A DNA stretch of 11,563 bases from Planctomycetota bacterium (lineage in GTDB: Bacteria > Planctomycetota > SZUA-567 > H5-PLA8): the NCBI GenBank assembly GCA_045863855.1, contig BTVV01000166.1:1-11563 (forward strand). The letters are read 5' to 3'. Position numbers and translations under genes: made by a program. The notes below the pieces were generated by a model. That model made no database searches and was not told the DNA's origin. It worked only from the letters and a program-made list of their open reading frames with translations. Below, in pieces: positions 1 through 11,563 of this stretch. The stretch's first letter is position 1, and every line of letters starts with the position of its first letter.

Positions 1-1809
1 CAGGAGATGGGCATGACCTGGGCGCGCGCCGGCTGTTACGTTTTGGTTCCGGACCTCATCGGATATGGCGAGCGTCTGCATACCCCATACCCTGGACGGC
101 AATCCTATTTCTTCAGGTACGATTTGGGCATGCAGTTCGCTCTTTGCGGAGAGAGCCTGATCGGAAGGTACGTAGGGGATCTGCAGCGCGGCGTGGATGT
201 GCTGCTGGCTCAAGATAACGCCGATCCCGCGCGCGTCATCCTTCTGGGCGCAGTGGCCGGCGGGGGCGATCCCGCGGCGGTGACGGCGGCGCTGGATTCG
301 CGGATCACCTGCGTGGCCCCGTTCAACTTCGGCGGGCCCCAACCGGAATCGGTCGTCGACGACGCGAGTGCGGCCGCCGGCTTCCGATACACCGGAAGCG
401 GTGGTTGGGAATCGACGCGCAATTTACGCCTTAGCGCGCGAGATGGCTTCTTGCCGTGGACCATCGTCGGCGCTGCCGTGCCGCGAGCCTTGGTATACGC
501 GCACGAATTCGAATGGCATGCAGATCTCGATCCGGTTTGGGCTCGCCTTCGAGACGTCTACAAATGGCACGGAGTTTCCGACCGCTTGGGCAGCCTAAAA
601 GGTACCGGGCGCGTATCGCAACGCCCGCCGGAAGCCACTCATTGCAACCAGATCGGCGCTTATCACCGTGCGCAGTTGTATCCGCTCTTCGAGCGCTGGT
701 TCGGGATGAAGCCACCGCGGTCCGAATACACGGCGGTGCGCGAACCGGAAGAGTTGAACGTCCTGCCCGAAAACTCGACTCGGATGCCCGCGCAACTCCA
801 GGCTCGGGTGCGAGCCGAGGCGAGAATTGCGGAAGCAATCCAAGCATTGGCGGCTTGCGAAAGCGATGCTCGACGGAGTTATCTGCGCGAACGCTACACG
901 CAAGTGCTTGGGCTTCCCGAACACGGAATTCCCGTTTTGCGCCTGGCCCCTGCTGCCACTTGGCGCGGGAGTACGCCGGTGGAGCGCCTAATCGTCGAGA
1001 CCGAACCGGGCATTGAAGTTCCTCTGCTACTGCTTCGTCCTCGCGAAGCCAGCGGCGGTCCTCTGGTAGTTGCCTTCGCTCAAGAGGGTAAAGCACGGAT
1101 CTTGCGAGAGCGCGGCGGTTCAATCGCTCACTTGCTTGAGCGCGGCGCGACCGTCTGCTTGCCCGACCTGCGCGGCTTCGGGGAAACGGCGCCTGATGAA
1201 GACCGAAGCTGGTACGGTCCGGCCACAAAGCATGCGTCGAGCGAACTTATGCTGGGACGCACTCAGCTTGGCAACCGCTTGTTCGATCTGCGTGCGGTGC
1301 TGATGGCGTTGCGTGCCCAGAAAATCGCGGAATGGAATGCCGTGATGATTTGGGGCGATTCGTTTGCTCGCTTGAATCCGCCGGGTTTTGAAAGCCCGCC
1401 GCATCGAGGCGGAACTCGCAGTCCCGATACACAGGGTCCCCCCATTCCACCGGCCGCCATTGGGGAGCCCGGTGCGGGTTTCCTTGCTTTGCTGGCTGCA
1501 CTTTTCGAACCTCAGGTACGCGCAGTTCACGCCACTCGAACACTGATAAGTTGGCTGGATACTCTTCGCACGCCTTTTGTGCACTTGCCCTTCGATGCGA
1601 TCGTGCCCGGTATCGTCCACGCAGGCGATGTGCCCGAGCTTGTCGCCACCTTGGCACCAAGTGATGTTTATTTCGAGGGTCCCATCGACGGACGAAATCT
1701 GCTCCTGAACCCAACAGACGCAAAGGCACGGTTGGCTAGCAGCGGAACCACCGTGCATGTACTACCCGATTTGACCGGCCCCGAATTGGTGGCATGGATT
1801 GAAACCTAA
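1..1809 (+). CDS. 5'-partial protein with two tandem alpha/beta-hydrolase-fold domains (acetyl xylan esterase / dienelactone hydrolase-like; substrate unknown)
   Basis: Frame 1 is open from base 1 (CAG GAG ATG) to TAA 1807-1809. Internal duplication of hydrolase motifs: GCYVLVPDLIGYGER vs GATVCLPDLRGFGET; GESLIGRYVGDLQRGVDVL vs GRTQLGNRLFDLRAVLMAL; AAVTAALDSRI vs ALLAALFEPQV. The first domain begins mid-fold: the second has an upstream segment (VERLIVETEPGIEVPLLLLRP...PLVV) that the first lacks, so the true start is probably upstream of the window. Confidence 0.85.
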   Translation, partial: QEMGMTWARAGCYVLVPDLIGYGERLHTPYPGRQSYFFRYDLGMQFALCGESLIGRYVGDLQRGVDVLLAQDNADPARVILLGAVAGGGDPAAVTAALDSRITCVAPFNFGGPQPESVVDDASAAAGFRYTGSGGWESTRNLRLSARDGFLPWTIVGAAVPRALVYAHEFEWHADLDPVWARLRDVYKWHGVSDRLGSLKGTGRVSQRPPEATHCNQIGAYHRAQLYPLFERWFGMKPPRSEYTAVREPEELNVLPENSTRMPAQLQARVRAEARIAEAIQALAACESDARRSYLRERYTQVLGLPEHGIPVLRLAPAATWRGSTPVERLIVETEPGIEVPLLLLRPREASGGPLVVAFAQEGKARILRERGGSIAHLLERGATVCLPDLRGFGETAPDEDRSWYGPATKHASSELMLGRTQLGNRLFDLRAVLMALRAQKIAEWNAVMIWGDSFARLNPPGFESPPHRGGTRSPDTQGPPIPPAAIGEPGAGFLALLAALFEPQVRAVHATRTLISWLDTLRTPFVHLPFDAIVPGIVHAGDVPELVATLAPSDVYFEGPIDGRNLLLNPTDAKARLASSGTTVHVLPDLTGPELVAWIET

Positions 1810-2184
1810 GGTGTGTCAACCAAGCACTTCTGCATCGAAAAAGCATCATTGGAGCTTCGGAATTGGAACCCAGCAAAGAACAGAACGCTCCTATACCCTT
1901 CGATTCACTATATATCAGTGGGTATGAATAGAGAATCAATGCTTTGGCGTGCTACATCAACTAGTACAATTCCTGCTCAGACAACCGGATGCAACAATGG
2001 AGCAACCTCATATTGACTGAACTCCTGCACTAGTGCAAATAGCAGGAAAAAGTTTCACCCTTCAACTTGATTGGAAGTTCTATTTAGCCTTCATTTCGGA
2101 TAGTCTATTTACAGGTTGCTTGCAGCCTTTTGGGCGATCTGAATCAGGGCTGCCAAAAGCTGCACTCAAATTGGGCTCATTCAC
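1810..2184 (+). promoter_or_regulatory. AT-rich intergenic region, probable promoter/leader of the downstream two-gene unit
   Basis: About 40% GC in sampled lines (25/60 at 1861-1920, 23/60 at 2041-2100) against visibly GC-rich CDS flanks. Weak sigma70-like candidate: TTGGCG 1944-1949 with TACAAT 1965-1970 (15-bp spacer). Contains a palindrome and inverted repeats. Confidence 0.5.
2026..2037. promoter_or_regulatory. Perfect 12-bp palindrome TGCACTAGTGCA, candidate operator
   Basis: Self-complementary as read. It lies within an inverted repeat TCCTGC (2023-2028) / GCAGGA (2042-2047) and just downstream of TTGACT (2013-2018). Function is inferred only. Confidence 0.3.
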
Positions 2185-2880
2185 GTGATGCGAAGTCCGT
2201 ATTCAAGCATAAGCCGAGTTGAGCTGCTTGTGGTATTGGGCGCAGTGTTGCTCACGGTGGGCTTGTTTGTCTTGGCTGCACCGAAGACGCCCGCTTCGGT
2301 GCAGGTTGGCCACAGTTTCAAATCCGAGCCGCTGCAGGAGCCGTCTTCGACTTCTTCGGGCGTGGGTAAACGCGAAAGCGATTTAACTGGACCTCGAATT
2401 GTGGCGGTTACACCCGGCCCCAACAGCACGCCCAATATGCCGCCGGCTGAATTGATCGTGACCTTCAGCGAGCCGATTCGCGCGAGCACGATCAACACCG
2501 GGACCATTCGAGTAACGCGCTCGGGGGGCGATGGAACGTTCAACGACGGCAACGAGGTCGAAATCGTGCCGGCTGCGGTCGAATTGATCGATCCGACCAC
2601 CGCTCGGCTGGACATATCGGGCGCGGTATTGCCGGACGACAAATACCGGGTACTGGTCCTAGGCGGGAACACGACGGGGTTGGCGTCGAGCAGTTCGAAC
2701 AGCAGTGCTTCGAGTTCGAACAGCAATTCGTCGAACTCCAGCACTTCGGCGTCGTCATCCAATTCATCGACCACCAGCACCTCCAATTCCACGTCGGCAA
2801 CCACTAGCGGAGCGAGTTCGAGCAGCGGGGGATCCTCCTCCAGCGGTGGAACCAGCAGCGGGGACGGGACATTCGAATGA
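2185..2880 (+). CDS. Membrane-anchored or secreted Ig-like-domain protein with prepilin-like N-terminus and Ser-rich C-terminal tail
   Basis: GTG 2185 or ATG 2188 to TGA 2878-2880. N-terminus SS|ISRVELLVVLGAVLLTVGLFVLAA is hydrophobic with Glu at +5. Ig-like segment 2386-2667 (TGPRIVAVTPGPN...IVTFSEPI...TRSGGDGTFNDG...DDKYRVLVLGG). Low-complexity tail follows. Confidence 0.8.
   Translation: MMRSPYSSISRVELLVVLGAVLLTVGLFVLAAPKTPASVQVGHSFKSEPLQEPSSTSSGVGKRESDLTGPRIVAVTPGPNSTPNMPPAELIVTFSEPIRASTINTGTIRVTRSGGDGTFNDGNEVEIVPAAVELIDPTTARLDISGAVLPDDKYRVLVLGGNTTGLASSSSNSSASSSNSNSSNSSTSASSSNSSTTSTSNSTSATTSGASSSSGGSSSSGGTSSGDGTFE
2686..2859 (+). repeat. Low-complexity Ser/Asn/Thr/Gly-coding tract (35 of 58 codons Ser)
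   Basis: SSSSNSSASSSNSNSSNSSTSASSSNSSTTSTSNSTSATTSGASSSSGGSSSSGGTSS, built from mixed TCG/AGC/AGT/TCC codons. Direct repeat AGTTCGAACAGCA at 2692-2704 and 2713-2725. Confidence 0.9.
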
Positions 2881-2960
2881 AGCCCCGCTCGCCCACATTC
2901 TCCCGCTCGATTGCGCCGCTGGCCGTGGTGGCCTTAATGGCGTGTTCGACCCTATTTGCA
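2877..2960 (+). other. Sec signal peptide of the giant protein
   Basis: Basic n-region (MKPR...R), hydrophobic core (IAPLAVVALMA), LFA|Q cleavage-like site directly before the first domain. Confidence 0.75.
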
Positions 2961-5900
2961 CAGAGCGGTCCGATCGCGCATTGGACCTTCGACGAAGGTG
3001 CGGGCACGACGGCCGCGGACTCGAGCGGGAACGGGCATACGGGGACGCTGGTTAATGGCACGGTTTGGACATTGGGCCTCCTAGGCAACGCGGTCCAGTT
3101 CGACGGCGTGAACGACTATCTTTCGGTGGGCATGGCCGATATCGCGACGCCATGGACGGCGGCGTTGTGGGTGCGGCGCGAGGATTCTACGCACTCAAAT
3201 GCCAAATTTACACACTCGAGTACCGGATCTTTGCGGCTGGAACAGTACGACGGGACCGACAAGGTCGGGTTAACCAAGTACGGTTCGTTCGACCAAGTTT
3301 TTAACTATCAGGCCCCGGTGGGAACGTGGGTTCATCTCGCGTTTGTGTGTACGAGCGGCGGGACGACGCTGTATGTCAATGGCGTCGCGCAGGGTTCGAT
3401 CGCGCAGTCGGCCGCCCTGGGCCTGCAAACGATCAGCCACGCCGATGGCGGGATGAAGGGCGCGTTGGACGATTTCCGGGTCTACGACCGCGCCTTAATT
3501 GCTTCTGAAATCTACACGCTTGCTTCGCCCGATCCGGCGCCGCCCGTGGCACGCGATGATGTTTACGGGATCGTAGGCGCCTCGCAGACGATTGCCGCGC
3601 CGGGCGTATTGGCCAATGACCAGGATCCCAACCTCGATCCGTTCACGGCGGTCAAGCAGTCCGACCCCGCGCACGGAACGCTCAGCCTGAATTCGGACGG
3701 CTCCTTCACGTACACGCCGACGCCCGGCTACGAAGGAGCGGACAGTTTCACATACTTGGCGCGAGACGCGGATGGCGACTCGAACATCGCCACGGTGACG
3801 TTGCACGTCGGTGGCGAGCCGCTGCCGGCCGGCCCCGTCAAGCGACTGCTGCATCTGGGCTCAACGGCCGGCAAGGTGATCGTGGGGTATCCGACGAGCG
3901 GGCAGAGCATCCTCTGGGATTTCATGCTCTTTGCCGGATATGGACCGGAGTACGCACTGCAGCCGCGCCCCGGGCAGAGCATGGGCATTGCGGTCGCGAC
4001 CAACGAGAACCCGATGGTCTGGACGATCCTCGACGACGCCGACGGCGATTGGGTCAACGGCGTGGCGGATCGCTACGTCGGGTATTGGGCGCTGTACTTC
4101 CATGTGCCCAGCGCTCGGGATGTGCGGCTGAGCGGCTCGGTGGACGATGAGGCCTGGATCTGGATAGATGGGAATCCGGCAGCGCTTGAGTGCGCGGGCG
4201 TTTTCAACCACACGGTTGCGCTTCAGACGGGTTGGCATGCGTTGCTCCTGAAGCACTTCGAGAATACGGGAAACGACCGTTTCTCGCTCTCGTTTAAGCA
4301 TACGGATGGCACGGACATGACGGATCTGCGCTACCACATGCAGGACGTGGTGGCGCCGGTGGTGGCCGAGGTTTTGCCCGCGCACGAGGCCGCGAGCGTG
4401 CCGCCGTGGCAGGATGTGATGGTGACGTTCCGCGAACCGATGAACACGACGATACCGGCCGATGCGGTGGCGAGTCTCGGCGGCGGAAGCGTGGCCGGGT
4501 CGTGGGCCTGGACGGACAACCGGACGCTTACCTTTACCCCCGGCGCGCTCTGGGATCCCGCCACGACCTACACGATCACGCTCGACCCGGACCATGCCTG
4601 CGATGCTGCGGGCAACAGGCTCTCGGGGCAGACGACCTTCACCTTCACGACGCAAGCGCGATCAAGTCCCGGTTTGGCGAGCGTCTCGCCGGCTTCGGGC
4701 TGGAACGCAAGCGCACTCCAAGGCGTGACCTTGAACGGGTCGGGGTTCCTGGAAGGCGCCGTGGCCCATCCGCCGGGCGCGCGGCCGTTCGGCGGGCACT
4801 ATTACCGGCCGCATATACCCGGTACGGACTGGCAGTCCGCGCGGAGCGCCTGCGTGGCGGCGGGCGGGCATCTGGCGACCTTGGCCGATGCCTCGGAAGA
4901 CCAGTTTGTCTGGAAGTTGGGCGGGCGAATGAACGGCTGGATCGGGCTCTACGACCCGACGCACACCGAATCCAACGTCTGGGTGACCGGAGAGCCGGTG
5001 ACCTACACCAATTGGGCCGCGGGAGAACCCTCCAACTTTGGCGAACAGGAGCCGTACGGCGTGTACTGGTGGGGCTTCCGCTGGAACGACGTAGGCAGCA
5101 GCGCCGCCAGTGTCCGGCCCTACGTCTGCGAATTCGACCGCCGGGAACAGCCGCAGGTACGCCTGAAGAAGGCTGGGCAGCCCGATCGTGTGGCGAGCGC
5201 GGTGAAGGTGACTTCGGGCGGTGCTTTGACCTTCGATGTGGACCTTACGGGCGCGGAAACCGGCCTTTGGGACGTGCACCTGACGAACCCGGACGGTTCC
5301 ACGGCGCTCTTGGCGGGTGGCTTTACGGTAACCGGGGAGCCCACGCCGGGCGACGGGTTGCTGGCGCACTGGAAGTTCGACGAAGGTTCGGGCGGTACGG
5401 CGGCGGATTCGAGCGGGAACGAGCATACAGGGACGTTGGGTGGTGGAGCTGAGTGGACCCATGGAGTGAATGGTGGCGGGCTGCGCTTCGCCGGTGTGGA
5501 TGAACATGTGGCGATTGACATGCCCCAACAGGCGTATCCTTGGACGTTCACACTATTCGTGAAGCGCGAACAGGGAAGTACGGCCAGCTCGGCTGCCCTG
5601 TTGAGCAACACCAGCTACCAGGTTCAATTAGAGCAGTATAACAACACCAAGAAAGTAGGGATCACCGACTGGCCGGCTGAACCGGACCGAAACCACGCGT
5701 TCAATTACACGGCGCCGTTTGATCGTTGGATTCATCTTGCTTACGTATGTACCGGAACGCAGACGATCGTGTACGTGAACGGGCAATTCGTGGACAGCAC
5801 TACTAACGTGATACCACTTCCTTTGACGACCATCGGACATCGCGCCGATGTATCGCCCAAGGCGATTTTGGACGACTTGAGGGTGTTCGGCCGCGCGTTG

Positions 5901-8900
5901 AGTGCCGGAGAGATTGCTGCGTTAATCGGCCCGCTGCCCCCGCAGGCCAGGGACGACAAGTATTCGATCGCGGAGGACGCGCCCTATTCAGCCGCCGCGC
6001 CGGGCGTGCTGGTCAACGATTACGACTTGAACGGACAAGCGTTGAGTGCGGCGCTGGTGACGCCGCCCGGTCACGCACAGACGTTCGTGTTGAACGCCGA
6101 CGGTTCGTTCAGCTACACGCCTGTGCCCGGGTATTTCGGATTGGATTCGTTCACCTACAAGGCGAACGATGGCGCGGAAGACTCGGCCCCGGCGACGGTC
6201 ACGATCAACGTGGGCGGGGTGGTGGCGCATTGGAAATTCGACGAAGGCGCGGGCGGTACGGCGGCGGATTCGAGCGGGAACGGGCATTCGGGGACGCTGG
6301 GTGGAGGAGCGGAGTGGACGACGGGAGTGAAGGGTGGCGGGCTGCGCTTCGCCGGGGTGGATGAGCATGTGGCGATAGACATGCCCCATCAACCGCATCC
6401 CTGGACGTTCTCATTGTTCGTGAAACGCGAGCCGGGCGGTACGGCAAGTTCGGCGGCCTTGTTAAGCAGCAGCAGTTATCAGGTTCAGCTCGAACAGTAC
6501 AACCATACCAAAAAGGTGGGGATCACGGACTGGCCGGCGGAGCCGGACCGGAACCACGCCTTCAATTACACGGCGCCGTTCAATAAGTGGATTCATCTTA
6601 CCTATGTCTGTACCGGTACAAACACGCTCGTGTACGTGAACGGACAGCTTATCGACAGCACAACCAACCTTATTCCGCTTCCGCTGACAACCATAGGGCA
6701 CCGCGCGGATGTCTCGCCTAAAGCAGTATTGGACGATTTGAGAGTATTCGACCGTGCGCTGAGCGCTTCAGAGATCGCGGCGCTAATCGGACCGTTGCCG
6801 CCGCAAGCCGAGGCCGACAAGTTTTCGATTGCCGAGGACGCGTCCTACTCGGCCGCCGCGCCGGGCGTGCTCACCAACGACTACGACTTGAACGGGCAAG
6901 CCTTGAGCGCAGCGCTGGTGACGCCGCCGAGCCACGCGCAGGCGTTTGCGTTCAACGCGGACGGCTCCTTCAGCTATACGCCGGCAGCCGGCTATCGCGG
7001 CCTTGACACCTTCACCTACAAGGCGAACGACGGCGCGGAGGACTCGGACCCGGCTACGGTCACGATCAACGTGGGCGGATTGGTGGCGCATTGGAAGTTT
7101 GATGACGGAAGCGGAACCACCGCACTGGATTCGAGCGGCTTCAACCACCACGGCACGCTTATGAGCAGCCCGGTCTGGGCGGCGGGGATCGCTGGCGGGG
7201 CGCTGGATTTCAACGGCAGTACCAGCCACGTGACGTGCGGGGACATCCTGAATGACCTGAAAACGCCCTTCACCTTCGCGACCTGGATCTATAAAGACGC
7301 CGGCAGTGGAAACACGGTGCTTGTTTCGACCGACGATTCGCCTTCCACTTACGCCGGCTTCTGGGTTCATGTGGATTCCACCGGCCGCGTTTCGATGCAT
7401 CTGGGCAGCGGGGCAGGAACCGGCTCGGGCGCTCGGCGAAGCAAGCATTCGCCCATTGGCGTGGCGGTGGAGGGGCAATGGACGCATCTGGCGTTCACCG
7501 TGCGAAACACAACGGACATGACCATCTACGTGGACGGCGTGGACGTGGGCGGCACATACGACGGTACCGGCGGCACGATGGCGCATACCACGGGCGTGTT
7601 CCAGATCGCCAAGCGCACGAACACCAGCCAGGTATTTCCTGGACTCATGGACGACGTCCGTGTCTACGACCGGGCGCTCTCGATGGCCGACGTGACCGAA
7701 CTGGCCGCCATGGGGCCGCCGGTGGCGCAGCCTGACAGTTTCCTCGTAACCCCCGACACGCCGTTGTCCGTTCCGGCCTCGGGCGTACTGGCCAACGACC
7801 ATGATGCGGGCGGCGCGGCACTCTCCGCGGTGAAGGACACCGATCCCGCGCACGGAGCGCTTACCCTCAACGCCGACGGTTCCTTCCTCTACACCCCCGC
7901 GCCGGGCTATACCGGCAGCGACGGCTTCACCTACCACGCGGTGGCTGACGGTCAGGCATCCGAGACGGTCATGGTGAGTTTCGCGGTGGGCAACGACGTG
8001 ACCGCGGGCCTGATCGGCCATTGGAAGCTCGACGAGGGTACGGGCACGACGGCGGCCGATTCCAGTGCGAATGCGAACCACGGAACCCTCGTCAACGGGA
8101 CCATGTGGGGCACGGGGTACAACGGCGGCGGCGTGATCTTCGACATGATGAACGACTATGTGAAGGTTCCGCAGCATGCCTCACTGGAACCAAGCGGCGG
8201 AGTCACGGTGGCTTTCTGGGCGCGCGTGGCCGATCCGCGCAGCGGGAACGTCGCCGATCTGGTCCGGAAGTCCGGGTTCAACTTGCCAGGGTACCTGATG
8301 CGTTGGAGCGGTTCCGACGGCACCCTGCAATGGCGGGTTGACCGGGCCGGGTCAGGGAACGTGCACGTTTTCGACTCGCAGCCCAACGCAGCCTATTCGC
8401 GCGACTGGCATTACTTCACGGGCACCTTTGACGCCTCGACGGGTCTGAGCGTGCTGTATGTGGATGGCCAGGAACGTGGGCGCGTCCAAGGCGCGCCGGG
8501 AGCGCTCGAACACAGCTCCGACCTGCATTTCGGCTGGATCCCGTTCGGCTCGCACGTGACGCCGGAAGGCGAAATGGATGACGTTCGCATTTACAACCGC
8601 GCTCTTTCGGGGGCGGAAGTGCTGGCGCTATCGCAGCGCGCGCCGATGGCAGTGGCCGATGGCTACGGCGTGGCGCAGGGCGGCTCGCTGACCGTTTCCG
8701 CGGCCGAAGGCGTCCTGGCCAACGACCGCGATCCCAACGGGCAGGGGCTCTTCGCACTGCTGGAAGGCGCAGCCCCGCCGGGTTTGAGCTTCCAGAGCAA
8801 CGGCTCGTTTGACTACACGCCGCCTGGCGGCACGACCGGATTGGTCACCTTCGCCTACCGTGCATCCGACGGAAACCTGACAAGCACCCCGGTCACCGTC

Positions 8901-11563
8901 TCGATCCGCCTCGATGCCCCGCTGCTGAACGTGACCGGACTTTCCAGCGCCGTAGGTTTCGTGGAGGCCGAACTGTCGCGGGACCTCCACGCCGGCTCGG
9001 TGAGCGCTTCCAGCGTGACGGTGACCCGCGCGGGCCCGGACGGTTTGTTCGGCACCGCCGACGATGCCACGGTGAGCGGCGCGCTTCAGGTGCTGGGCGG
9101 GAACAAGATTCGCTTCGTGCCGGACGGCGGGACCTTCTTCGACGACCGCTACCGGCTGCGCCTGAAGAGCACCGGACCGTTCGCCGCCGCGACCCCAAGC
9201 AACTCGACCGGACGGGACGGGGTGGTGCTGTCGAGCGTCGCGCCCACCTTGGCGACAGGGCCGGGGCCATTGAGCCTGACCCTGCTTGGCCAAAACATTC
9301 CGATCTTTAACGGCTCGACTACGGCGCTGCCGACCGTGACATTCGATGGCGTGGACGACCAGTTCGGCATTCCCGACGCCGATACGCTGGACGTTCCGGC
9401 GATCACGCTGGAGGCGTGGGTGCAGCCCAATACAGGCGGATGGGTGCTTTCGAAACGTAGCAACGCTCCGTTCCAATGGAATAAATTCCAGCTCACGTCA
9501 GGTTCTGGTGCGCGCTTTCACACGGTTCCCGATGCCGGCACGCCGATGTTCGATCTCGAACACGGAAGCGGTTTTGCTTATCCGTTCGGTACCTGGCAGC
9601 ACTTGGCCGCCTCGTTCCAACCCAACCCCGACGGAAATAGCGGCGTCAAACGGTTGTATGTCAACGGCGTGCTGCAGGGCGAGGAAGCGTTTCCCTACAA
9701 ACTAGCCGGTTCCAACTACCAGATGAACCTGGGACGCTTCCAGGGTTGGGACTGGGCCGGCTACTACAAGGGTAAGATGGCCGAGGTGCGCTACTGGAAG
9801 GTGGCGCGCACGCAGGCGCAGATTCGTGCTTCGATGTTCGGGCCGGTCTCGGACCCGGACCTGATCTTCCGCTACGACTTCAACGAGGCCGGGCCGACTG
9901 CGGCCGACCGGACCGGGAACGGGCATACGGCCACGAGCGGCGGCGGGGTGCTCTTCGGCGGCGCGGTGCACGTGGCGCCGCTGATGGCGCGGCTGGTAAA
10001 GGGTTCAGACGAAGCGGTTTGTTCGGGCGCGATTTCCAGCGACGGCTCGACGCTTACGTGCGAAGTGGACGCGTCGAGCCTTCCGTCGGGGGTCTACGAT
10101 GTGGAGGTGCTGGAAGGCCGCAGCCTGCTCCTGGCACGGCTGGCGCGCGGCGTATTGGTGTTGAGCGGCGACGGCGTGGCCGCGAGCGACGGAGGCGTGC
10201 TGGATGGAGAGTACGACGCCGCGCTTCCGTCCGGCAATGCGGCGGCCGGAGGGGACTTTGTCGCCGAATTCACAGTTGACGGGCAGACGCCGATCGTAGT
10301 GAGCACCGTTCCGGCAAACGGCGCGACGGGTGTCAATCAAGCGGTGGATGTCGAGATCGAATTCAGCGAAGCGATGAATCGCGCCAGTGTCGAAGCGGCA
10401 ATAGCATTTGATCCGGCGGTTCCGTATGCAGCCGAGTGGAACGGGAACACGCTGGTGTTGAGGGTGAATGCTCCGCTGGCCCAGTTAACCGAGTATACGG
10501 TGACGATCGGCATGGGCGCTGAGGACCTGGGCGGCACCGCCTTGGCCGCTCCTTATGCCTTCTCCTTCACGACGGGGCAGGTAACGGTAACGGCGATCAA
10601 TCCTTCAAGCAGTTACCCGGGCTTGGCGCTGAGCGATGTCCGGATCGACGGTACGGCATTCTTCGAAAGTTCGGCCGAACCGGGACCGCCGGAAGCCGTG
10701 GTCTTTGGCGGGCATGCCTACCTTTATGTAACTACGGCGGCCACTTGGACGACTGCCAAGGCCAACTGCGAAGCCTTGGGCGGCCACTTGGTAACGATCA
10801 ACTCCGCCGAAGAGAACGCTTTCGTCGCCTCTCTATTCTCGACAGGGAAGGTCTGGATCGGTGCTACTGACGCTGTCCTGGAGGGGACTTTCGTTTGGGA
10901 TAACGGAGAGCCGGTTACCTATACGAACTGGTACGCAGGCGAACCGAACAATTCCGGCAACGAAGACTATGTGGAAATGCTCGCGGGAGGGCTCTGGAAT
11001 GACCGGAACAATCTGAGTCAGGGCTATATCTGCGAATTCGAACGAGCACCGCCGACGGTAAAGCTGAAGCTCGACGCCACCGAAATTCCGGCATCGCGAA
11101 TTCGCTTCGTTTCCGAAACCGAACTGCGGGCGGCTTTCAACCTGGCAGGTGCGGCTTCGGGAGCCTACGATGTCGTCGTCACCAATCCCGATGGCGGCGG
11201 CACGGGGACGCTCCCCGGCGGCTTCCAAGTGCTTCAACCGCCGCAACTTTTAGCTGTCACTCCCCCCGTAGCGGACCAAAACGCAACCGTCGCGTTGACG
11301 CTGACCGGCAGCAACCTCCCGACGTGGACGGGTACCGCACAGGGTCCTCCGAGCTACTCGACCTACGGTGTGAGGATCACCAATGGATCCAACACGGTCT
11401 ATGCGACCGGCGTGCTAAGCATCAGCACGACGACGCTTTCCTGCGGCATAAACCTTACCGGATTGCCGCTGGGGCTCTACGATGTGACGCTTCTGAGCGG
11501 GGCTGCCGCGCTTGCAACCTTGCCGCAGGGCTTGCGTATCATCGATCCGGCGTTGACCGTAAC
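2877..11563 (+). CDS. 3'-partial giant secreted multi-domain adhesin/lectin-like surface protein (>=2895 aa; LamG, cadherin-like Ig, Big_5, PA14-like, IPT/TIG and C-type lectin domains)
   Basis: ATG 2877-2879 overlaps the upstream stop (ATGA). Manual translation of this frame found no stop to the window end, with recognisable domain motifs throughout. Probably absent from the ORF track because it has no stop inside the window. N-terminus MKPRSPTFSRSIAPLAVVALMACSTLFA-QSG is signal-peptide-like. Confidence 0.95.
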   Translation, partial: MKPRSPTFSRSIAPLAVVALMACSTLFAQSGPIAHWTFDEGAGTTAADSSGNGHTGTLVNGTVWTLGLLGNAVQFDGVNDYLSVGMADIATPWTAALWVRREDSTHSNAKFTHSSTGSLRLEQYDGTDKVGLTKYGSFDQVFNYQAPVGTWVHLAFVCTSGGTTLYVNGVAQGSIAQSAALGLQTISHADGGMKGALDDFRVYDRALIASEIYTLASPDPAPPVARDDVYGIVGASQTIAAPGVLANDQDPNLDPFTAVKQSDPAHGTLSLNSDGSFTYTPTPGYEGADSFTYLARDADGDSNIATVTLHVGGEPLPAGPVKRLLHLGSTAGKVIVGYPTSGQSILWDFMLFAGYGPEYALQPRPGQSMGIAVATNENPMVWTILDDADGDWVNGVADRYVGYWALYFHVPSARDVRLSGSVDDEAWIWIDGNPAALECAGVFNHTVALQTGWHALLLKHFENTGNDRFSLSFKHTDGTDMTDLRYHMQDVVAPVVAEVLPAHEAASVPPWQDVMVTFREPMNTTIPADAVASLGGGSVAGSWAWTDNRTLTFTPGALWDPATTYTITLDPDHACDAAGNRLSGQTTFTFTTQARSSPGLASVSPASGWNASALQGVTLNGSGFLEGAVAHPPGARPFGGHYYRPHIPGTDWQSARSACVAAGGHLATLADASEDQFVWKLGGRMNGWIGLYDPTHTESNVWVTGEPVTYTNWAAGEPSNFGEQEPYGVYWWGFRWNDVGSSAASVRPYVCEFDRREQPQVRLKKAGQPDRVASAVKVTSGGALTFDVDLTGAETGLWDVHLTNPDGSTALLAGGFTVTGEPTPGDGLLAHWKFDEGSGGTAADSSGNEHTGTLGGGAEWTHGVNGGGLRFAGVDEHVAIDMPQQAYPWTFTLFVKREQGSTASSAALLSNTSYQVQLEQYNNTKKVGITDWPAEPDRNHAFNYTAPFDRWIHLAYVCTGTQTIVYVNGQFVDSTTNVIPLPLTTIGHRADVSPKAILDDLRVFGRALSAGEIAALIGPLPPQARDDKYSIAEDAPYSAAAPGVLVNDYDLNGQALSAALVTPPGHAQTFVLNADGSFSYTPVPGYFGLDSFTYKANDGAEDSAPATVTINVGGVVAHWKFDEGAGGTAADSSGNGHSGTLGGGAEWTTGVKGGGLRFAGVDEHVAIDMPHQPHPWTFSLFVKREPGGTASSAALLSSSSYQVQLEQYNHTKKVGITDWPAEPDRNHAFNYTAPFNKWIHLTYVCTGTNTLVYVNGQLIDSTTNLIPLPLTTIGHRADVSPKAVLDDLRVFDRALSASEIAALIGPLPPQAEADKFSIAEDASYSAAAPGVLTNDYDLNGQALSAALVTPPSHAQAFAFNADGSFSYTPAAGYRGLDTFTYKANDGAEDSDPATVTINVGGLVAHWKFDDGSGTTALDSSGFNHHGTLMSSPVWAAGIAGGALDFNGSTSHVTCGDILNDLKTPFTFATWIYKDAGSGNTVLVSTDDSPSTYAGFWVHVDSTGRVSMHLGSGAGTGSGARRSKHSPIGVAVEGQWTHLAFTVRNTTDMTIYVDGVDVGGTYDGTGGTMAHTTGVFQIAKRTNTSQVFPGLMDDVRVYDRALSMADVTELAAMGPPVAQPDSFLVTPDTPLSVPASGVLANDHDAGGAALSAVKDTDPAHGALTLNADGSFLYTPAPGYTGSDGFTYHAVADGQASETVMVSFAVGNDVTAGLIGHWKLDEGTGTTAADSSANANHGTLVNGTMWGTGYNGGGVIFDMMNDYVKVPQHASLEPSGGVTVAFWARVADPRSGNVADLVRKSGFNLPGYLMRWSGSDGTLQWRVDRAGSGNVHVFDSQPNAAYSRDWHYFTGTFDASTGLSVLYVDGQERGRVQGAPGALEHSSDLHFGWIPFGSHVTPEGEMDDVRIYNRALSGAEVLALSQRAPMAVADGYGVAQGGSLTVSAAEGVLANDRDPNGQGLFALLEGAAPPGLSFQSNGSFDYTPPGGTTGLVTFAYRASDGNLTSTPVTVSIRLDAPLLNVTGLSSAVGFVEAELSRDLHAGSVSASSVTVTRAGPDGLFGTADDATVSGALQVLGGNKIRFVPDGGTFFDDRYRLRLKSTGPFAAATPSNSTGRDGVVLSSVAPTLATGPGPLSLTLLGQNIPIFNGSTTALPTVTFDGVDDQFGIPDADTLDVPAITLEAWVQPNTGGWVLSKRSNAPFQWNKFQLTSGSGARFHTVPDAGTPMFDLEHGSGFAYPFGTWQHLAASFQPNPDGNSGVKRLYVNGVLQGEEAFPYKLAGSNYQMNLGRFQGWDWAGYYKGKMAEVRYWKVARTQAQIRASMFGPVSDPDLIFRYDFNEAGPTAADRTGNGHTATSGGGVLFGGAVHVAPLMARLVKGSDEAVCSGAISSDGSTLTCEVDASSLPSGVYDVEVLEGRSLLLARLARGVLVLSGDGVAASDGGVLDGEYDAALPSGNAAAGGDFVAEFTVDGQTPIVVSTVPANGATGVNQAVDVEIEFSEAMNRASVEAAIAFDPAVPYAAEWNGNTLVLRVNAPLAQLTEYTVTIGMGAEDLGGTALAAPYAFSFTTGQVTVTAINPSSSYPGLALSDVRIDGTAFFESSAEPGPPEAVVFGGHAYLYVTTAATWTTAKANCEALGGHLVTINSAEENAFVASLFSTGKVWIGATDAVLEGTFVWDNGEPVTYTNWYAGEPNNSGNEDYVEMLAGGLWNDRNNLSQGYICEFERAPPTVKLKLDATEIPASRIRFVSETELRAAFNLAGAASGAYDVVVTNPDGGGTGTLPGGFQVLQPPQLLAVTPPVADQNATVALTLTGSNLPTWTGTAQGPPSYSTYGVRITNGSNTVYATGVLSISTTTLSCGINLTGLPLGLYDVTLLSGAAALATLPQGLRIIDPALTV
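2961..3527 (+). other. LamG/concanavalin A-like domain 1
   Basis: IAHWTFDEGAGTTAADSSGNGHTGTL...AVQFDGVNDY...WVHLAFV...LYVNG...GALDDFRVYDRAL. Confidence 0.9.
3537..3809 (+). other. Cadherin-like/Big_9-type Ig domain 1
   Basis: PPVARDDVY...GVLANDQDP...PAHGTLSLNSDGSFTYTP...DSFTY...SNIATVTL. Confidence 0.9.
3822..4340 (+). other. PA14-like beta-sandwich (putative Ca2+/sugar-binding)
   Basis: YVGYWALYFHVPSARDVRLSGSVDDEAWIWIDG...VALQTGWHALLLKHFENTG resembles the PA14 pattern (SDD.....IDG ... L..G.H.....E..G). Confidence 0.6.
4344..4652 (+). other. SbsA/Big_5-type Ig domain 1
   Basis: DVVAPVVAEVLPAHEAASV...VTFREPMN...TLTFTP...TTYTITL...DAAGNRL...FTFTT. Confidence 0.85.
4665..5333 (+). other. IPT/TIG-like domain 1, split by an inserted C-type lectin domain (N-part 4665-4757, C-part 5151-5333)
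   Basis: N-part PGLASVSPASG...VTLNGSGF; C-part PQVRLKKAG...LTFDVDLTGAETGLWDVHLTNPDGSTALLAGGFTV. Confidence 0.75.
4788..5135 (+). other. C-type lectin domain 1 (EPS...WND)
   Basis: FGGHYY...WQSARSACVAAGGHLATL...WIGL...WVTGEPVTYTNWAAGEPSN...WNDV...YVCEF. Confidence 0.9.
5364..7085 (+). repeat. Intragenic tandem duplication, 2 x 861 bp (287 codons): LamG2+Big_9 and LamG3+Big_9
   Basis: AHWKFD codons recur at 5364, 6225 and 7086 (period 861). Manual alignment gives about 40 amino-acid differences in 287 with no indels. Antisense ORFs in the track show the same offset (5741 vs 6602; 6155 vs 7016). Confidence 0.95.
7077..7988 (+). other. LamG domain 4 (7077-7709) plus cadherin-like Ig domain 4 (7716-7988)
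   Basis: LVAHWKFDDGSGTTALDSSG...WTHLAFTV...IYVDG...MDDVRVYDRALS; then PPVAQPDSF...GVLANDHD...PAHGALTLNADGSFLYTP. Confidence 0.9.
8007..8912 (+). other. LamG domain 5 (8007-8630) plus cadherin-like Ig domain 5 (8640-8912)
   Basis: GLIGHWKLDEGTGTTAADSS...WHYFTGTFD...LYVDG...MDDVRIYNRALS; then APMAVADGY...GVLANDRDPNG...NGSFDYTP...FAYRASDG. Confidence 0.9.
8919..10280 (+). other. Nested module: Ig-like domain (8919-9176 + 10164-10280) containing IPT-like domain 2 (9222-9302 + 9978-10163) containing circularly permuted LamG 6 (9333-9962)
   Basis: Outer N-part TRAGPDGLFGTADD...DDRYRLRLKSTG; outer C-part LDGEYDAALPSGNAAAGGDFVAEFTV. IPT halves align with the uninterrupted IPT at 11238-11546. LamG runs FDGVDD...TLEAWVQP...WQHLAASF...LYVNG...MAEVRYW...LIFRYDFNE...ADRTGNGHTAT. 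Confidence 0.75.
10284..10577 (+). other. SbsA/Big_5-type Ig domain 2
   Basis: TPIVVSTVPANGATGV...IEFSEAMNRASVE...TEYTVTIGMGAEDLGGTALAAPYAFSFTT. Confidence 0.9.
10578..11234 (+). other. IPT/TIG-like domain 3, split by an inserted C-type lectin domain (N-part 10578-10667, C-part 11049-11234)
   Basis: N-part VTVTAINPSS...VRIDGTAF; C-part PTVKLKL...FVSETELRAAFNLAGAASGAYDVVVTNPDG...LPGGFQV. Confidence 0.8.
10704..11039 (+). other. C-type lectin domain 2 (EPN...WND)
   Basis: FGGHAY...TWTTAKANCEALGGHLVTINSAEENAFV...WIGATD...EGTFVWDNGEPVTYTNWYAGEPNNSGNEDY...WND...YICEF. Confidence 0.93.
11238..11546 (+). other. IPT/TIG-like domain 4 (uninterrupted)
   Basis: PPQLLAVTP...LTLTGSNLP...STTTLSCGINLTGLPLGLYDVTL...ATLPQGLRII. 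Confidence 0.75.

Follow-up and report, generated by a model that had tools for sequence, protein, structure and literature searches.

Introduction

Split Ig-like domains of RTX adhesins were reportedly treated by Graham et al. in 2024 (Proteins 92:933). For the RTX adhesins AhLap, FrhA, and MpIBP, the available sections of three papers describe "split domains" with projecting ligand-binding domains, and they report crystal structures and double nesting (PMC12077191, PMC10865825, bioRxiv 10.1101/2025.09.30.679566). Completion of an Ig fold by another chain is known from chaperone-usher pili: according to the available part of the source, the fold of FimA lacks its last strand, and a segment of another chain completes it (PMC6615685).

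Here we describe a giant protein with a related design and a small protein encoded upstream of it. The window, i.e., the whole stretch of 11,563 nt that was analyzed, is the entire planctomycete contig G000:C166 and contains the terminal part of a hydrolase-like gene, followed by a small gene (2185-2880) and an open reading frame starting at 2877. As in the RTX adhesins, an Ig-like stalk domain is discontinuous in sequence, with a whole domain of ligand-binding type emerging from it, and the nesting is two deep, as in the available descriptions of the RTX proteins. The in-chain split-domain design has thus already been published for RTX adhesins, and the design of the giant protein is akin to it, but the protein is no RTX adhesin. 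It has a signal peptide and neither an RTX roll nor a type I signal, and the RTX-adhesin Pfam family was absent from the full-length orthologues P0003 and P0004, which end in a PKD domain and an unnamed domain. The hosts also differ, being IPT/TIG and Big_5 domains in the giant protein. The same applies to the cargo, with C-type lectin domains (CTLDs), LamG domains, and propellers here, as compared with the available sections of the RTX papers; the words "C-type lectin" and "laminin" are absent from the available text of PMC12077191 and bioRxiv 10.1101/2025.09.30.679566. Unlike in the RTX adhesins, one domain is moreover split between two genes. All parts belong to or resemble the families IPT/TIG (PF01833), Big_5 (PF13205), Lectin_C (PF00059), and Laminin_G_3 (PF13385), while the nested arrangement differs. 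A literature search, mostly among papers available without subscription, returned no relevant report on IPT-hosted CTLDs, on such planctomycete proteins, or on a two-gene Ig clasp outside pili.

Organization of the Locus

The end part of an alpha/beta-hydrolase-like gene (1-1809; weak Pfam matches to Abhydrolase_1 and AXE1) is followed by a spacer of low GC content (1810-2184; bins of 0.51-0.53 versus 0.64 for the genome), which precedes a two-gene unit. No sigma-70-like promoter site was found within 1700-3000. The small gene (2185-2880; 231 aa from the GTG at 2185, the start being uncertain) overlaps with its stop the start of the giant gene (2877-11561), which comprises 2895 codons and then runs off the contig end; record 8 of run X2 extends about 3.4 kb beyond this point. 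Both genes and all features described within them lie on the forward strand. The full-length giant protein is present in two orthologues from two genomes of the same genus, with frames of 4507 and 2986 aa. A signal peptide was recognized by eye at about 2877-2960, and judging from its sequence, the giant protein is likely a secreted, adhesive surface protein.

The first block of the mature protein (2967-4661) contains a LamG, a Big_9, and an ordinary Big_5 domain as assigned by Pfam, and an unclassified domain of 170 aa (3837-4346) without a Pfam match, which by eye we take to be PA14-like. Since the 170 aa domain, the Big_5 domain, and the following IPT[CTLD] unit occur nearly always in that succession in relatives, they appear to form one travelling cassette. 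Behind the first IPT domain, four tandem LamG-Big_9 pairs are arranged as beads on a string (5355-8915). Pairs 1 and 2 (5355-7076) are near-identical copies, and the number of pairs varies across the orthologues. The sequence of run X5 departs from the window at 5435 and rejoins it near 6750-6850. This divergence, together with the pair numbers of the orthologues, suggests a strain-level change in the array at 5355-7076. The remaining part of the gene is occupied by the split domains described below and by an uninterrupted ordinary Big_5 domain (10284-10577; Pfam, aa 2469-2566).

IPT Domains Interrupted by Lectin-Type Cargo

An earlier, sequence-only reading of the window had proposed four IPT/TIG-like domains, two with a CTLD, one with a LamG domain, and one empty. 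Pfam and the reading frame agreed with this, as all four segments lie in one open frame at the positions then given. IPT1 (4665-5333) consists of a first part (4665-4757) and a second part (5148-5333) on either side of a CTLD (4758-5147), and IPT3 (10578-11234) has its parts at 10578-10670 and 11046-11234 around a second CTLD (10671-11045). In IPT2 (9222-10163), a LamG domain (9333-9977) separates the first part (9222-9332) from the second (9978-10163), and IPT4 (11238-11546) is empty, with a loop of 16 aa. Matches above the cut-off were obtained for Lectin_C in the IPT1 and IPT3 segments (47.9 and 73.5 bits) and for Laminin_G_3 in the IPT2 segment (65.7-67 bits, model positions 1-150). TIG matched the empty IPT4 alone, with 16.4 bits, which is below its cut-off of 20.9. 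The two CTLDs harbor two Cys each and carry EPS (IPT1) or EPN (IPT3) together with WND, aligned at the Ca2+/sugar site. We take these motifs to represent a Ca2+-dependent sugar site, through which the CTLDs would bind sugars.

The host domains were compared pairwise after scripted removal of the cargo and fell into two subtypes, A with IPT1 and IPT3 (z 19.6) and B with IPT2 and IPT4 (z 18.6). In both pairs the alignment was also significant half by half (N-half z 7.0 and 5.8, C-half z 11.0 and 11.7), so that the claimed alignment of IPT2 and IPT4 on either side of the insertion site was recovered. The whole alignment of IPT2 and IPT3 gave z 0.2, and N-halves compared across subtypes were mostly non-significant. 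IPT4 had been regarded as an empty control within the same protein; it can serve as such for IPT2 but not for the CTLD hosts, which belong to the other subtype.

An outgroup profile (model length 98) was built on 120 domains without interruption, all belonging to other lineages. It matched each of the unmodified CTLD-bearing hosts twice, and the matches were complementary (model positions 4-38 and 35-97 in one host, 4-35 and 37-97 in the other). Joining of the two parts raised the profile score by 22 and 18 bits, gains which random N-pieces reached in 0 of 300 and 4 of 300 cases. The N-half of IPT2 was invisible to this profile, with 50 of 300 controls scoring equally high, and was detected by a profile of five N-halves of the same subtype from outside the genus (16.3 bits, aa 2118-2146). 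All cargo, in each case a whole domain, occupies the same loop, as had been proposed. By our naming of the strands, we take the insertion site to come after the second strand, whereas the RTX hosts, in the available sections of the papers on them, are opened either behind the first strand or ahead of the final two.

The LamG cargo of IPT2 had been read as permuted. Its last 50 residues matched the first 50 residues of four stand-alone LamGs of the protein (z 8.7, 7.8, 2.4, and 4.0) and gave no match to the last 50 residues of these four domains, so that the cargo is circularly permuted. The nesting is no assembly artefact, since contigs from other runs span the window junctions unchanged and none of the five listed joints removes a cargo. 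Run X2 is possibly a source of the window DNA, and runs X4 and X5 belong to other studies.

An uninterrupted IPT relative (L016) scored above the TIG cut-off with 21.6 bits, and six of nine empty relatives matched at E values up to 1. When empty relatives were compared with the PDB, the best matches were a plexin IPT domain and domain D of CGTase, both weak (E 0.009-0.03). We infer that the first and second parts of each split domain fold as one beta-sandwich, and we are highly confident of the split-domain anatomy of the giant protein as a whole.

Occupants of the IPT Loop in Relatives

Among titled database records, full-length matches of the IPT3 segment came from Planctomycetota MAGs. Among 62 genomes of the class, full-length matches to IPT[CTLD] were confined to the family of the window, and a word-index search with IPT4 gave one match. 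A first survey comprised 217 distinct IPT second halves from 160 loci. A short loop preceded 128 of them, 68 had no first half by rule, and 21 followed a long gap. Inspected by eye, the 68 were all short loops except for one CTLD case. Two of the long gaps (L063 and L132) were mis-pairings and 19 were real, so that this survey contained 16 CTLDs and 4 LamGs as cargo in all. A wider set (n = 236) held 24 CTLDs, 5 LamGs by rule (6 with L017), and 207 domains without CTLD or LamG.

The 24 CTLDs sat in IPT1/IPT3-like hosts, with P0110 as the divergent one among them, and the 6 LamGs in IPT2/IPT4-like hosts, the subtype being assigned by eye. Trees of host and CTLD cargo (24 rows) were largely concordant, and the identities of host and cargo showed a weak correlation (Spearman 0.29, 16 rows). 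The best candidate for a CTLD swap was unsupported (AU p 0.31). Because each subtype keeps one cargo type and the trees largely agree, the IPT socket looks like the record of two old insertions that were then copied as units. The earlier notion that the heads are exchangeable is not supported by these data for the IPT socket.

A Pro-x-aromatic-x-Gly motif opens the loop in all subtype B hosts, whether or not they carry cargo, and its spacing is as in stand-alone LamGs. Given this resemblance, IPT4 may be a product of cargo loss, and its longer loop may be the stub that was left.

The sugar-site motif varies inside the IPT[CTLD] unit (EPN, EPS, and one QPD). The QPD is found in the second CTLD of P0012 (L085:8319-9302), and the sibling CTLD in the same protein has EPS. 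If the motif has the meaning that we assume, the QPD hints at an altered sugar preference within one socket.

A Big_5 Domain as the Outer Socket

A further feature, additional to those of the earlier reading, encloses IPT2. IPT2 with its LamG sits between the first part (8916-9173, without about 15 N-terminal model positions) and the last part (10173-10283, an Asp/Gly-rich loop and the final strand) of a Big_5-type domain, which results in the double nesting Big_5[IPT[LamG]]. The Big_5 socket is opened before the last strand. Uninterrupted Big_5 copies matched PF13205 above the cut-off across the junction in six of six cases. No solved structure related to the Big_5 subtype of the window was found by sequence.

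The cargo of this socket was surveyed in the best 150 database proteins, 61 of which have such last parts. They contained 62 Big_5 pairs without cargo and 91 with long gaps. Six of the 91 gaps were long-range mis-pairings, and 85 held real cargo, namely 76 LamGs in normal or permuted order, one IPT[LamG], and 8 other inserts. The latter comprised FG-GAP and PD40 propellers, a legume-lectin-like domain below the cut-off, and an unnamed domain. By these domain assignments, the socket with varied cargo is the Big_5 domain and not the IPT domain.

A 183 aa Big_5 cargo without a Pfam match (L220:3821-4369) is a candidate for a new binding domain. Up to 12 tandem Big_5[LamG] units occur in P0005, P0006, and P0007, forming bottle-brush-like arrays.

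A Small Gene with an Incomplete Big_5 Domain

The small protein consists of a hydrophobic helix (about 2224-2280), the first part only of a Big_5 domain (2386-2667; Pfam model positions 3-83 of 105), and a Ser/Thr-rich tail up to the stop at 2880 (66% Ser/Thr). We searched 17 genomes of the family for Big_5 first parts and found 47, six of them in short frames. These six small genes come from five genomes of three genera and have the helix and the tail in common. Small proteins match the Big_5 model only in part (positions 3-83, 1-78, and 4-87 of 105). Among 45 first parts, the six small genes formed one clade (96/92, the bootstrap being not fully settled). A seventh small protein is encoded on metagenome contigs (L208/L209), upstream of a truncated gene for a secreted Big_9 protein.

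The hydropathy of the helix was 2.15-2.87 in the small proteins (n = 6) compared to 1.10-2.15 for the signal regions of large proteins (n = 14), so that the ranges just touch. By eye, a possible cleavage site is present in several small proteins. A type IV pilin-like N-terminus was considered and rejected, as there was no match to a class III signal motif family; no pilin-like match was obtained with NCBIfam for all six small proteins or with Pfam for those scanned. A word-index search with the Big_5 domain of the small protein gave two matches, and its Atlas matches, all below 0.9, are leads only.

Association of Small Genes with Unpaired Big_5 Last Parts

In all five small-gene loci with an intact neighbor, the adjacent large gene has exactly one unpaired Big_5 last part, whereas a small gene as neighbor was seen for 0 of 14 large genes with balanced parts, a set that includes 3 genes truncated at the 3' end. 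The Fisher p value of 8.6e-5 for this association overstates it, because the five loci are related, three belonging to one genus and two being orthologues; with three independent cases, p was 0.0015. The unpaired segment is located at the mature N-terminus in L190 (G007). In L191 (G005) it follows one LamG, and the gene order is reversed there, with the small gene downstream. In L011, L012, and L013 (both orthologues and one paralogue) it directly follows an empty IPT domain, which in both orthologues is IPT4; in L011, it is encoded at 13092-13232 and the Big_5 first part of the small protein at 2935-3216. At the corresponding place in the window it would start at the contig end; the window's own unpaired segment was absent from the assembly, in which the best tblastn match had 40%.

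First and last Big_5 parts are in balance only when the small genes are counted (6/6 in G002, 4/4 in G001, and 3/3 in G007). The genome of the window has 3 first and 2 last parts, as expected from the cut contig. The genome-wide balance of G003 and G011 was left out, being partly a coincidence of cut contigs, as were apparent unpaired segments in L317 and L318, which lie at contig ends. P0008 was rejected as a case of Big_5[IPT] in one chain, as it has an unpaired last part; it and P0009 have one such segment each, and the count was exactly one per protein in seven proteins. Between the orthologues, the unpaired segment is identical at 40/44 positions, compared to 32/40, 28/43, and 28/37 for paired last parts and 484/768 for the whole block. 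Unpaired and paired last parts have the same consensus.

When the prediction was tested on metagenome contigs, the one new small protein was that of L208/L209, with its partner cut off. The metagenome loci contained 91 first parts; a last part followed directly in 72 and behind a longer gap in 16, and it was missing in 3. One Big_5[LamG] gene (L323:4393-5730, G365) has an in-frame stop just past the first part, and its relative L322 is intact. The gene may be broken or may have split early and independently, or the stop may stem from an assembly error.

Interpretation of the Two-Gene Arrangement

We favor, with moderate confidence, a physical pairing of the small and the giant protein via one shared Big_5 domain. 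The association could also be explained if only the in-chain split domains were functional and the small gene and the unpaired segment were leftovers of fission or shuffling that make no contact. Modules are heavily shuffled in these proteins, the independent loci are few, and L323 demonstrates that a stop can fall within such a socket. We nevertheless consider leftovers unlikely: the small genes form one clade across three genera and have kept helix and tail, the unpaired segment is conserved above the paired ones and occurs exactly once in each of seven proteins, and the pair is retained in reversed order in L191. From the common consensus of unpaired and paired last parts, one could also envisage that the small protein is not specific for its neighbor; it would take up all Big_5 last parts, by strand swapping if they are already paired, and cross-link giant proteins instead of binding one of them. 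The one-to-one pairing in the genomes and the balanced part counts make such promiscuity quite improbable.

Two further explanations deny either the second protein or the split domains themselves. Translation of the small and the giant gene might yield a single chain through frameshifting or read-through, the outer domain then closing within one protein. The overlap of stop and start in the window, L011, and L190 and the common frame of the two genes in L013, with one stop between them, would be in line with this, but the frame relation varies by locus, every large gene has its own signal-like N-terminus, and the small gene of L191 lies downstream; we give a single chain very little chance. 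It is similarly hard to maintain that the pieces on either side of the cargo serve as linkers or form mini-domains of their own in a plain beads-on-a-string protein. The single-sequence AlphaFold model of IPT1[CTLD] was of low confidence (pLDDT 47), IPT4 stayed below the TIG cut-off, and the outgroup profile missed the IPT2 N-half; against this stand the complementary profile matches in the split hosts and the existence of uninterrupted relatives of both the IPT and the Big_5 hosts.

In the proposed model of two paired proteins, the chain of Ig domains would be the stalk, with lectin-type heads budding from its loops. If the two parts of every split domain form a single beta-sandwich, the Ig chain would bear the tension, with the heads directed away from it. 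By analogy with the RTX adhesins, placement in loops would keep the binding sites clear and the load off the heads, and we hold, with good confidence, that display of binding heads off the stalk axis, as the earlier reading had it, is the likely purpose of the nesting. After Sec export, the unpaired segment of the giant protein (35-45 residues) would complete the Big_5 fold of the small protein. As in donor-strand complementation of pili, an incomplete Ig fold would receive a segment from another chain, which would result in a 1:1 complex. The differences from the pilus donor strand are the length of the donor segment, its Asp/Gly-rich loop, and its position, as the chaperone-usher donor lies at the mature N-terminus, whereas this is the case in one of five loci here (L190) and the segment is internal in the other four. 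A chaperone-usher subunit is also donor and acceptor at once and polymerizes, while the small proteins have a first part only and the large ones a single surplus last part. With no donor on the acceptor protein and no open acceptor on the donor protein, a 1:1 pair is expected and not a polymer.

The long hydrophobic helix of the small protein, if it stays uncleaved, as is most likely, would fasten the giant protein to a membrane. After cleavage of the helix, the contribution of the small protein would rather be a bristle that is rich in Ser/Thr and possibly glycosylated. The outcome depends on the cleavage of the helix, and we put the chances of a tether over a bristle at about even. An inner-membrane tether is hard to reconcile with a mid-chain docking site that has lectin arrays on both sides. 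Taken together, the arrangement would be a natural tag-and-catcher clasp, with one part of a Big_5 domain on a small membrane-bound protein and the other on a giant lectin-bearing one, attaching the latter to the cell without usher, sortase, or type I plug and at any place along the chain. For this complete picture we see a little better than an even chance.

With these findings, an adhesin design that was described recently gains new hosts (IPT/TIG and Big_5) and new cargo (C-type lectin, LamG, and propellers), and in-chain nesting is now seen in a phylum without the RTX adhesin context. Because of the in-chain nesting, domain tools miss these Ig domains. Sharing of one Big_5 domain by two proteins would be a step beyond the in-chain design. 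Should the pairing be physical, giant surface proteins would have a simple means of attachment in Planctomycetota, a phylum whose envelope is little understood, and the two parts, of about 95 and 40 residues, would make a compact split-protein pair of natural origin. The Big_5 socket accepts inserts of 200-370 residues and is therefore a candidate display scaffold.

A C-Terminal Domain Common to Large Proteins of the Family

Both orthologues of the giant protein and many large open reading frames of the genome terminate in a PKD domain followed by an unnamed domain of about 330 aa (L011:15621-16631). This domain had no match in Pfam or NCBIfam. In the Atlas it matched clusters of Planctomycetota hypothetical proteins (0.90-0.91, low recognition). 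It may be a lineage-specific export or attachment tag of family-wide occurrence, separate from the small protein. In the genome of the window (G000), it is also encoded on contigs C27, C28, C115, C132, C41, C3, C5, C11, and C20.
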